Assembly: GCA_964360965.1 (NCBI GenBank)
Contig: CAYHYM010000011.1
Span: 1-24,681, forward strand
DNA: 24,681 nucleotides
Direction of reading: 5' to 3'
Source: an uncultured Gammaproteobacteria bacterium
GTDB taxonomy: Bacteria; Patescibacteriota; Microgenomatia; Daviesbacterales; UBA10151
Shown: in pieces, positions 12,001 through 15,000 of the stretch
How positions within the stretch are numbered: position 1 is the first letter of the stretch
Layout of the letters: the number at the start of each line of letters is the position of its first letter
Position numbers: made by a program

Positions 12001-15000
12001 GGCAATATTATCACCCTTAAAAAAAGAGCTCAGTGGAGGGGTATTGAAGCTGAAGTTAAAAATATTTCCATATCCGATAGGATTTCCACTTCCGATGTGG
12101 ATATTTTTTTCTTTGGGGGTGGGCAGGATCAACAGCAAGAGTTAGTAGCAAGGGATTTACAAAAAGGTAAGGGCAAAATAATCAAACAGGAAGTGGAAAG
12201 AGGGGTACCACTACTAGCTATCTGTGGAGGTTACCAGCTTTTAGGAGAATATTATCAGCCACATAAAGGTCCCCGCCAACGGCCCGCTTCGCAGCGAGGC
12301 GAGCGAGGCTCGCCTTCGGCGGCAAAACTTCCAGGGGTAGGGTTATTTCCAGCTTACACAGTAGCTAGCCACGATCGGATGATCGGCAATATAGTAATCC
12401 ATGCTACCAGCTACCTGCTACCAGCTACCAGCTTGGTTGGTTTTGAAAATCATTCCGGGAAAACTTATCTTAAAAAAGGAGCGTTACCATTTGGGATGGT
12501 TGTTAAGGGGTTTGGGAATAATGGTGAAGATAAAACCGAGGGCTGTATCTATAAAAATGCCATTGGATGTTACATGCATGGCAGTCTGCTTCCCAAAAAT
12601 CCCCATCTTACTGACTGGTTAATACAAAAAGCCTTGGAAACTAAATATGGTCTGGAGGTTAAACTGAAACCACTTAATGATGAACTGGAAAATAAAGCTC
12701 ATCAAAAAGCTATTAAGATGTTTACTTAAATTATGGAAACTAGAATTTTTGTATATCGCCACCGAAAGTCAAGAGCTGAAAGTCAGCAATCGGTTAGATT
12801 AATTACATCTACTGATCATCATGATGAACTTCCTCGCCCACTTGATTTAATCAAGAGAAATAATTTATCTAATGCTGGATCAAGACTATTAACATTCCAT
12901 GGATTTAATGTAACTGGTGAAAGAATACAGTCTTTTTATCAACTTCCAGCCTTCCGTGGATTAAGAATTTATCGATATTTTACTCAACCAAATACCTATT
13001 TAGTTAGAAATGAGGATCTGCCATTACTGAAACTAACTTTACACTCAGCGAAACTAATTCAAGAAATTCTTCTGCCCACTAATTCAGTTTGAGATTATGT
13101 TAAAATATTCACGCGCCCAAGTGGTGGAATGGTAGACACGCATGGTTTAGGACCATGTGCCGCAAGGCATGGAGGTTCGACTCCTCTCTTGGGCACCAAA
13201 ATTTTGATTTTTTAACCCTAAAGGTGTAAAATAGCAACTTATATGGCAGATGTAAATACTTTAAACCGAGTCAGGTCTATTGGAGGAGCCATGGGTTTTT
13301 TTGATGAGTGGAATTTCGAAATTGGCGAAGGTGGAAAACTTATTCAACAAGGAGCCCAAGAAATTTCTCAGCTTTTTACCACAGACATTTTAGGACTGGG
13401 TCAAAAAGAACAAAAACCTTTCCCGCCCAAAGGCAGTATAGATTTTCAAAAAGAAACGCAATTTAAAAGAGTATTTTATGCCAAAATGGAGGAAACACGA
13501 AAAGACGAAGAGCACTTTACCCTGCAAAACAGTATGGAGGAGACTGCCAGACTGGAAGTTTCTGCCATGCCATCTGATGAAAAAAAGAAACTTTTACATG
13601 TCAGTTTGGACTTAAGGAATGAACATATCTCTCATCCCTACCATATCCATGAGGCTAGAAGAAAAAAAATGGAACAGATAAAAGCGGCCAAAAAGCAAAA
13701 ACAATCTCAAGAACTGGCTTCTGCCACCAAAACTGACAATTTAACTGGCAGGCTTGATGCTCAAGAGGGCCAGAGTATGGTCTCCCAATCAGGGGCAATT
13801 TTAACAGCAGGCTAATTATTCACTACTTCAGACGTGGTGGGCGCTTTTTGTAAAAGTTCGTGGACATTAATACAAATTTCCATATCAAATGCCCAGTCAA
13901 CAAACGGGAGGCCAAAATTTTTTCGCCGCCAATTACGATTTTTCAGCTATAATTTCAATCCAATTTGTTTTTCCAGATAAGGTAACATTTTCATAAATCA
14001 CCTTTAATCCGGAACCCTCAACGTATTTTCTTAATTCATCTAAAGTAAAATAGCTAAAAAATCTTTCATAATCATACCCATAATCATTCTCTTTTACAAT
14101 TTCTTCGTCCTTGCCTCCCTGTCGCAATTCTTTCACTGCCACATAAAAGTAACCGTTTGATTTGAGTGGAGAAGTTATATTTTTCAAAACATCAACAACC
14201 TCGTTTTTTGGGATATGTAATAAAACTGCTTGGGCAAAAACTCCATCAAAGGAATCTCCAAAATCTAATGATTTCTTGATATCCTTCACAAAAAATTTAG
14301 CAGTCGGAACTTGCTCTTTTGCTAATTTAATCATTTCTTCTGAAAAATCTATACCCGTTACTTCAAAGCCTTTTTTAACTAAGAACTTAGATTTTTCTCC
14401 TGCTCCACATCCAACATCTAAAATGGATGCTTTTGGTTTGAAATGTGATAGATATTTATCCGTTCCTTCGATCCACCAAGTATCGCCGTGATGGTCTTCC
14501 ATCCAATCTTTTGCGATTCTATTGTAAGTTAATTTTAAGTCCATAATTATTTATTTGGTAGCCAAGATTTTATTATCAACGTATATGGTAAATAACCCAT
14601 GATTGCCAGAAAAGCAATAAAAAGCAAAATTATCTTTTCCCATCCCTCAAAAAAAAGCCAAGCTATTATTGCAATAACTAAAATCAAAAGAGGAAATTTC
14701 CAGAGTTTATTTTTCATTTTCGCTGTATTGATATGATAACTTGTTATATTCATCTGTCGGGTAAGCACAAATTCCTTCCTCATGCCACAAAAGAAACTCG
14801 GAAATGCCAGAATCTAATGCGAGACGACCACAAACTGTACAGTAAGGCTTCCCTGATTTTTTTATATTTCCTTGTTCATCAACTCTTGTGAAATAAAGTT
14901 TTGATCCATTCAATTTTCCTGAATTTCTTTTCAGCGCATCCGTGATAGCTCGCCATTCGGCATGCATGCAACAAGTTTGATCATATTTCGGTTTGCCCGG

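Follow-up and report, generated by a model that had tools for sequence, protein, structure and literature searches.

A GC-rich insert in gatD of a Daviesbacteria-like Patescibacterium belongs to a dispersed family of short palindromic modules

Patescibacteria, also referred to as the candidate phyla radiation (CPR), have tiny, gene-dense genomes that are usually described as repeat-poor. Here, we analyze a 24,681-nt stretch of DNA (GenBank contig CAYHYM010000011.1, positions 1 to 24,681; hereafter the window) with a GC content of 38.6% and closest protein matches in Candidatus Daviesbacteria (Microgenomates, Patescibacteria), and characterize a 51-nt GC-rich segment lying in-frame within its gatD gene. 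We place this insert in a family of short palindromic modules dispersed through many genomes, compare the family with known small repeats, and weigh the explanations for its presence in a conserved cell-wall enzyme.

Results

The insert lies in the second of two adjacent cell-wall genes. The upstream gene, murT (10638–11942, + strand), encodes the Mur-ligase-like subunit of lipid II isoglutaminyl synthase (Pfam Mur_ligase_M at 7.5e-20 and MurT_C at 2.1e-33), and its stop codon falls 1 nt ahead of the gatD start, an operon context whose arrangement is syntenic in the relatives L002, L125 and L126 (loci carry L numbers and GatD homologs P numbers throughout). The open reading frame (ORF) at 11944–12729 (+ strand; 261 aa, GTG start) matches Pfam GATase_3 (PF07685, 1.6e-39), a CobB/CobQ-type GATase domain, and, among solved structures, Staphylococcus aureus GatD (5n9m/6gs2 at 1e-51) as well as 9sq9 and 6fqb, identifying it as gatD, the glutaminase subunit of lipid II isoglutaminyl synthase MurT/GatD. 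Its residues Cys94 (codon 12223–12225), Arg145 and His212 are invariant in the alignment of GatD orthologs and align with S. aureus Cys94 and His189, which are catalytic, and Arg128, which binds glutamine (PMC5871853). Given the conservation of all three residues, the window gatD looks functional.

Sixteen residues past Cys94, between KGP and KLPG, the ortholog alignment places a 51-nt in-frame insert at 12274–12324 (+ strand) that encodes 17 residues, RQRPASQRGERGSPSAA. Because C runs flank the insert its boundary is ambiguous by up to 3 nt, and placements at 12271–12321, 12273–12323 and 12274–12324 are equivalent. The initial annotation, made from the sequence alone, had placed this segment at 12271–12321, in-frame within gatD between the nucleophile motif ICGGYQLLG and GFENH, and the sequence together with the Pfam and PDB matches bears this out; read from 12271, the segment encodes P-RQRPASQRGERGSPSA. 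With 40 of its 51 nucleotides G or C (78%), the insert is the largest GC island of the window, in which 40-nt windows of at least 72.5% GC make up the top 0.1%; the other islands are a conserved CofD motif (8431–8483) and a hairpin beside tRNA-Tyr.

The window copy is a composite of two modules: the 5’ side of an outer hairpin of 29/30 nt encloses a 23-nt core, itself an imperfect hairpin. The core module, GGCCCGCTTCGCAGCGAGGCGAG (12281–12303, + strand), is the imperfect hairpin CGCTTCGC/GCGAGGCG in its short-loop form, with a T.G mismatch. Around it, the left part of the outer hairpin (CCGCC-AAC-GG; 12273–12282, + strand) and the right part (CGAGGCTCGCC-TTC-GGCGG; 12304–12322, + strand) together rebuild a 29-nt short form, CCGCC-nnn-GGCGAGGCTCGCC-nnn-GGCGG. 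The stems listed in the initial annotation are all present in the sequence, including the 7-bp stem GGCGAGC/GCTCGCC (12298–12304 with 12308–12314), which overlaps the 3’ end of the core; the outer pair is formed by CCGCC (12273–12277) and GGCGG (12318–12322). All six frames of the window’s 51 nt, and all six of the 30-nt short form, translate without a stop codon, and the 32-nt core is stop-free in five of six. The covariance model R1 matches positions 12267–12317 (36.7 bits, E 5e-8). Against Rfam 15, the window returned only tRNAs at gathering score, and no family covered the element in seven example loci when these were searched in E-value mode.

The insert is absent from S. aureus and Streptococcus pneumoniae GatD, and alignment to the solved GatD proteins bears out the initial annotation in that the S. 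aureus enzyme has no such stretch. Close orthologs were likewise expected to lack the segment, which is the case for 117 of the 120 nearest Daviesbacteria orthologs; the exceptions include two others, P0005 (RQGRGSPSAA) and P0024 (RRRRGSPKAA), with a short homologous insert at the same site. A further nine of the 120 have inserts five codons upstream, between YYK and PH. Empty gatD sites (L125 and L126) read GGN CCA AAR, which locates the element within a Pro codon.

At the nucleotide level, gatD of both L001 and L002 carries a 30-nt near-perfect palindrome, CCGCC-nnn-GGCGA-GGC-TCGCC-nnn-GGCGG, at the exact site of the window insert, which is the same element with 21 extra nt. In L003, a 57-nt insert that holds the core occupies a site 15 nt upstream in the opposite orientation; its reverse complement has two 12-mers, GGCCCGCTTCGC and AGCGAGGCGAGC, in common with the window insert, and it is the same element, reversed and at another position. 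The L004 insert has termini as in L003. These gatD inserts measure 51, 30, 30, 57 and 36 nt, all multiples of three and all free of stop codons.

Carriers of the insert are scattered over a neighbor-joining (NJ) tree of GatD, which is star-like and poorly resolved. The filled gene of L002 is 83% identical in nucleotides to the empty gene of L126, as against only 69–73% to the other filled genes, and the shared 30 nt of the element are 80–93% identical among filled genes, above the gene average. These 30 nt thus appear far more alike than an unconstrained old insert should retain, and repeated acquisition from a conserved pool fits the comparisons better than a single old insertion that was then precisely lost many times.

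Palindromes of another kind also occur in this gene. The orthologs P0022 and P0083 (L247:501–1271 and L248:501–1283) have small palindromes with an ordinary GC content in the upstream loop (for example TTTTGC-TTC-GCAAAA, CTTTTC-TTC-GAAAAG and TCATC-TAAA-GATGA), and a GCGCG-CTT-CGCGC insert lies near the N-terminus. These palindromes could be decayed copies or belong to hairpin families of another kind, or they could indicate that this loop favors hairpins.

The loop holding the insert corresponds to S. aureus GatD residues about 105–111 and is variable among orthologs. Alignment to the solved structures maps it outside the catalytic Cys, His and Arg positions; it also falls outside the elements reported to contact MurT, which in S. 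aureus are helices alpha2 and alpha7 and the beta13-alpha6 loop. In an AlphaFold2 (AF2) model of the window GatD, the predicted local distance difference test (pLDDT) score stays below 50 across the insert, which is modeled as a low-confidence coil.

To define the family beyond gatD, we scanned one genome per GTDB species for the core pattern GGCCCGCTTCGC-N(0-12)-AGCGAGGCGAG, which has 23 specified bases. Exact matches occur in at least 120 loci, against a chance expectation of roughly 0.02 at even base composition. Among the matches listed, most are in Patescibacteria (Davies-, Levy-, Curtiss-, Portnoy-, Uhr-, Moran- and Saccharibacteria, and others); the other carriers are Omnitrophota, WOR-3, Raymondbacteria, Lentimicrobiaceae and other Bacteroidota, Planctomycetota, Bdellovibrionales and two Chelativorans isolates, and 112 of 121 copies lie in loci of at most 55% GC. 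Single genomes hold several copies: at least 10 in one metagenome-assembled genome (MAG), at least 4 in Chelativorans xinjiangense and at least 4 in one Uhrbacteria MAG.

Some of the carriers may be misnamed. Several loci from third-party-annotation (TPA) MAGs labeled ‘uncultured Gammaproteobacteria’ (L026, L111, L041, L058 and others) have a GC content of 33–43%, and L026, which bears this label, has the same element-bearing 5S rRNA gene and flanks as the Microgenomates-type L072 and L100. Some NCBI taxon labels of carrier MAGs are probably wrong, and the phylum count of carriers should therefore be read cautiously.

The commonest full form of the element is a long imperfect palindrome, cctgcctgcc-GGCCCGCTTCGCC-GGAGCTTC-AGCGAGGCGAG-caggcagg, whose inner stem CGCTTCGC/GCGAGGCG always contains the T.G mismatch. 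In the alignment of L005–L124, the central 8 nt of the core (RRAGCTYY) are inverted in some copies, giving two versions that are reverse complements of each other (such as GGAGCTTT and AAAGCTCC), with the asymmetric stems keeping one orientation; it looks as if the hairpin tip flip-flops. Likewise, of 51 short-form copies read on one strand, 25 have G and 26 have C as their central base, in a count that mixes element orientations. The core also sits at the apex of other outer palindromes (CCCTCC.../...GGAGGG, and GTCCGGGACCCATT... in Chelativorans), and the terminal inverted repeats, CCGCC...GGCGG in the window copy, are CCTGCCTGCC...CAGGCAGG in other subfamilies.

The architecture of the window copy, CCCGCC-nnn-core-CGAGGCTCGCC-nnnn-GGCGG, recurs at L081 and L093 and at the unrelated loci L114, L042, L074 and L152, and composite copies lie within genes for PolX (L042, peptide PRRGPASPAKRGERGSPGRAAE), PurL (L074) and MurG (L152, SRQRPASQRDERGSPGAA). 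By scanning metagenomes for the outer module, we recovered the bare 29-nt short form in at least about 64 distinct low-GC copies at unrelated loci; high-GC matches with long gaps to the outer module were set aside as chance matches. The short form is abundant in metagenomes and was not found outside gatD in 0.9 Mb of locus sequence. The search for further copies that the initial annotation had proposed was therefore productive, with the same modules present in hundreds of genic and intergenic loci. A literature search for the sequence strings and the topic returned nothing relevant, and the family is apparently undescribed so far.

Many copies reside within genes. With a threshold of at least 80 open codons to either side, 15 of the 112 core copies and 22 of the 68 short-form copies from low-GC loci (13–32%) count as intragenic, and in-frame copies are found in gatD and at least 20 other genes. 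A Pfam domain match spans the element in TopA, RpoB, Fpg and two P-type ATPases, and the element splits the GyrA domain. Host genes further include those for PolX, PurL, FtsZ, MiaA, RecG, MurG, a Mur ligase, KsgA, two IleRS, CysRS and QueA, as well as an HhH-GPD glycosylase gene with two copies. All intragenic copies examined keep the reading frame. Both orientations and several frames are used, giving the recurrent peptides GPLR..SEAS, PASP..QRGE, RLAE..AKRAG, SRQRRGSPKAA and PAEGEARQGR.

A counterpart to the window comes from its close relative L125, in which a core copy in reverse orientation (CCCGCTTCGCCCGCGAAGCGAGGCGAG; L125:14708–14744) lies in-frame near the C-terminus of PheT, adds about 9 residues (SPRFAGEAG) and is flanked by a 7-nt direct repeat, AGGTGGC. 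The window pheT (18801–20510) has no core copy and the L125 gatD has no insert, a reciprocal pattern of presence and absence. The core is also found inside the 5S rRNA genes of three Microgenomates-type MAGs (L072:5953–6098, + strand; L100:771–915; L026:1901–2049), where it occupies the tip of helix III and expands loop C from 6 to 36 nt.

The sequences around the copies bear on how the element may spread. Short-form flanks are conserved as (T)C / element / C(A), and 19 of 64 short-form copies, against 1.8 expected, have imperfect flanking direct repeats of variable length (8–15 nt). Examples from L127–L246 are L241:1857–1915, L165:7910–7968, L180 and L152. In the GyrA copy (L216), comparison with solved GyrA shows the repeats to be contained in an insertion of 43 residues, and we therefore do not call such repeats target duplications: they could be target duplications, a target preference or the arms of larger nested elements. 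No pair of copies flanks a gene within the 8-kb flanks.

Other features of the window include a GC-richer stretch in murT (11683–11712; GTCCC GAGCGGAGTCGA GGGAC) that encodes SRAESRD and sits in a loop of variable length among Daviesbacteria MurT orthologs. It is common to L125 and L126 (SRAKSRD) and absent from L003, and a longer segment takes its place in L001; the stretch may have arisen by an old insertion of a palindrome. A second gatD loop, before LVGFENH, contains a near-tandem repeat (12405–12433; gctaccagctacc-t-gctaccagctacc-agc) that encodes ATSYLLPATS, and its length is highly variable among orthologs (0–22 extra residues). The murT and gatD genes are directly adjacent in the window (11942–11944), L002 and L126, and a small extra ORF (84–107 aa) lies between them in L001 (1405–1689), L003 (2750–3004) and L125 (6884–7207); these intergenic ORFs gave no Pfam match. 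Further downstream, tRNA-Tyr (23181–23266, + strand) is followed by a GC-rich 8-bp hairpin, TCGCGGCG-GAGGGGGT-CGCCGCGA, at about 23298–23321. The two (23181–23341) are overlapped by the 3’ part of a serine-recombinase ORF (23072–24568, − strand; 498 codons) whose resolvase domain match starts only at profile position 67, and this overlap may mark the boundary of an integrated element at a tRNA gene or a degraded integrase.

Discussion

The initial annotation likened the insert to Rickettsia palindromic elements (RPEs) or miniature transposable elements with inverted repeats (MITEs). RPEs are non-autonomous palindromic repeats that lie in-frame in unrelated housekeeping genes, with a tolerated peptide product and no known transposase (PMC10969869). 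The element described here is likewise a palindromic repeat in-frame in unrelated protein genes, and no transposase is known for either. However, RPEs are about 100–150 bp long and form about ten Rickettsia-specific families, whereas this element is 23–60 nt, modular, nested, GC-rich in AT-rich genomes, near-identical across several phyla, also present in 5S rRNA, and found here in a Daviesbacteria-like Patescibacterium; length and lineage, rather than a comparison of consensus sequences, set it apart.

Repetitive extragenic palindromes (REPs) and the REPINs built from them resemble it in other respects. They are GC-rich imperfect palindromes of 20–40 nt, present in many copies, often clustered or nested with other hairpins, lacking target duplication, and oriented by a conserved mismatch in the hairpin; copies of the present element number at least 10 in one MAG and at least 4 in each of two other genomes, and the window holds one. 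By contrast, REPs are extragenic by definition and usually species-specific, while the present copies include intragenic ones and are near-identical across phyla. In most REPs one end bears a GTAG or CGTC tag (PMC3733652). Such an end tag is absent here, with only 4 of 51 short-form copies having either tetramer within 10 nt, and no neighbor resembling a REP-associated tyrosine transposase (RAYT) recurs within 2.5 kb of 120 copies.

MITEs, such as Correia, ERIC and BOX, are also small, dispersed and non-autonomous, occasionally form in-frame ORF fusions, and share inverted-repeat ends with our element. They differ in being usually 50–500 bp long, with terminal inverted repeats derived from a parent insertion sequence (IS) and target duplications of fixed length, whereas here gatD shows no duplication, no parent IS was found in the 8-kb flanks and the basic modules are 23–30 nt. 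A further parallel is offered by the GC clusters of yeast mitochondria, mobile short GC-rich palindromes in an AT-rich genome with in-frame copies in var1; these are organellar and eukaryotic, belong to other sequence classes and have AT-rich flanks, and the likeness is one of description only.

By analogy, then, RPEs are the closest counterpart in function and REP/REPIN sequences in form. The element itself stands outside RPEs by length and lineage, outside REPs by its intragenic copies and missing tag, and outside MITEs by the lack of a fixed duplication and, within the 8-kb flanks, of a parent IS. What survives of the original comparison is RPE-like behavior; membership among RPEs, REPs or classical MITEs does not, on grounds of length, duplication and tags. 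We describe it as a small non-autonomous palindromic repeat, notable for its tiny modular units, cross-phylum near-identity, residence in essential genes and presence in 5S rRNA.

We consider it probable that the gatD insert represents a selfish or neutral repeat, one of the copies of a family of short GC-rich palindromic modules that is dispersed and non-autonomous, and that it became inserted in the Pro110 codon region. This reading builds on the identity of gatD, an in-frame insert that most orthologs lack, its membership in the family, the other in-frame copies and the patchy distribution. The insert’s persistence in an essential gene would be explained by a length that is a multiple of three, by the lack of stop codons in every frame, and by hydrophilic, flexible residues in a loop that varies among orthologs and lies away from the catalytic and MurT-contacting elements. 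It would be transcribed and translated as a flexible 17-residue loop rich in Arg, Pro, Ser and Gly, with GatD staying functional. Retention in the mRNA and protein is very likely because the frame is strictly conserved across all intragenic copies. Both the neutrality of the insert and mobility, rather than repeated loss, are presumed from these patterns.

Several results weigh against this reading. The predicted fold of the 51 nt (−28 kcal/mol) is not better than that of dinucleotide shuffles (z = −1.2; 21 of 200 fold as well), so that the family and comparative data, and not the fold, carry the argument for a palindromic element. The 24.7-kb window contains no second copy with up to 3 mismatches, nor one detected by model R1 with filters off. 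Compared with the empty sites (GGN CCA AAR), gatD shows no target-site duplication longer than 2 nt. All-against-all BLAST of the ORFs within 2.5 kb of 120 copies uncovered no recurrent protein family, transposases included; the element is therefore considered non-autonomous, and we infer its mobility solely from how the copies are distributed. No copies occur in the 2.9 million viral contigs of IMG/VR, and the plasmid and phage databases gave one weak match to a Streptomyces plasmid and none to a phage, leaving a phage or plasmid vector unsupported. Overall, the AF2 model is of no more than moderate quality (mean pLDDT 70) and served solely to note the disorder of the insert, so placement in a surface loop draws mainly on the alignment to solved structures. 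Finally, the window, L001 and L002 inserts share site and orientation, which could also mean one old insertion followed by many precise losses.

That alternative, in which an ancient gatD insertion was inherited vertically, precisely lost in most lineages and is now simply a lineage-specific loop, could accommodate the common site, orientation and reading frame of these three copies as well as the star-like, poorly resolved tree. Palindromes flanked by short repeats, here C/CC, can moreover be deleted precisely. Yet the carriers are not mutual nearest relatives, the gene closest to that of L002 (L126, 83% nucleotide identity) is empty, and a neutral old insert should be less conserved than its gene, whereas the shared 30 nt are 80–93% identical in genes that are 69–73% identical. 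The same modules also occur reversed at a second gatD site and at hundreds of unrelated loci across phyla, and we regard a single ancient insertion as distinctly improbable. It is also unlikely, if somewhat easier to entertain, that the hairpin is kept for a function, whether as mRNA structure in the murT–gatD operon, as a protein-bound DNA or RNA site, or as an Arg-rich loop of the enzyme. The very high conservation of the core across phyla, including the fixed T.G mismatch, is what such a role would predict, as is an element more conserved than the surrounding synonymous sites; in other gatD orthologs this loop contains small palindromes that are not related to the element, some with an ordinary GC content, which could mean that a hairpin is favored there. 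But the invariance of the core stems in part from searching for exact matches, an insert is present in just 3 of 120 orthologs at the window site and in 9 of 120 at the neighboring one, and intragenic copies in either orientation and in several frames, together with the spread over unrelated genes, intergenic DNA and 5S rRNA, form the pattern of a selfish repeat and not of a gene-specific regulator.

A different possibility is that the insert is an intervening sequence removed after transcription by hairpin cleavage and ligation, or skipped by ribosomal bypass, to give a protein without the 17 residues; the initial annotation had raised removal at the RNA level as the less likely reading. A stable hairpin with paired ends resembles the substrates cut by RNase III-type enzymes in rRNA intervening sequences, and the same element lies in 5S rRNA genes, where processing is conceivable. 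We consider removal very unlikely: all gatD inserts are multiples of three and stop-free and the examined intragenic copies keep the frame, properties that would be needless if the segment were removed, and the sequence contains neither a stop codon nor a take-off/landing codon pair as in T4 gene 60. To our knowledge, no bacterial pathway cuts and rejoins mRNA in this way. Intein and intron readings were also considered and rejected. As for an assembly or sequencing artifact, in the form of a chimeric junction or of GC-rich DNA from elsewhere, only a single contig has this exact GatD protein on record; homologous inserts in the same codon (L001 and L002) and related ones nearby (L003 and L004) are nevertheless present in assemblies made independently from different samples and projects, the frame is exactly preserved, and the family occurs in isolate genomes (Chelativorans) and in MAGs of many studies, so that we give this explanation almost no credence.

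If the insert is, as we favor, a copy of a dispersed repeat, the features of the family hint at how it might move. Its fixed mismatch, nesting at hairpin tips and lack of duplication recall the single-strand hairpin recognition of HUH/Y1 enzymes (REP/RAYT and IS200/IS605), although recognition of this type is a lead rather than a result. More speculatively, the 23–30-nt modules may represent an unrecognized class of ultra-small mobile DNA, transferred horizontally among Patescibacteria and co-occurring phyla, frame-neutral by design, moving by a mechanism other than those of IS, REP or MITE elements, and seeding surface loops; we put this forward tentatively, as a proposal that is rather less likely than not to prove correct. 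Were it true, near-stop-free, frame-keeping units could colonize the essential genes and rRNA of streamlined genomes where intergenic space is scarce, moving for example into hairpin tips or between short direct repeats.

The family described here lives inside essential CPR genes, including those for cell-wall enzymes, RNA polymerase, gyrase, FtsZ, tRNA synthetases and 5S rRNA, and its near-identical sequence is common to unrelated phyla of the same habitats. Inserts of this kind can mislead gene callers, alignments, composition-based binning and structure prediction. The family accounts for part of the puzzling lineage-specific insertions in CPR proteins, provides a natural experiment on how far conserved enzymes tolerate insertions, and offers a ready marker for the horizontal flow of DNA between CPR bacteria and other members of their communities.

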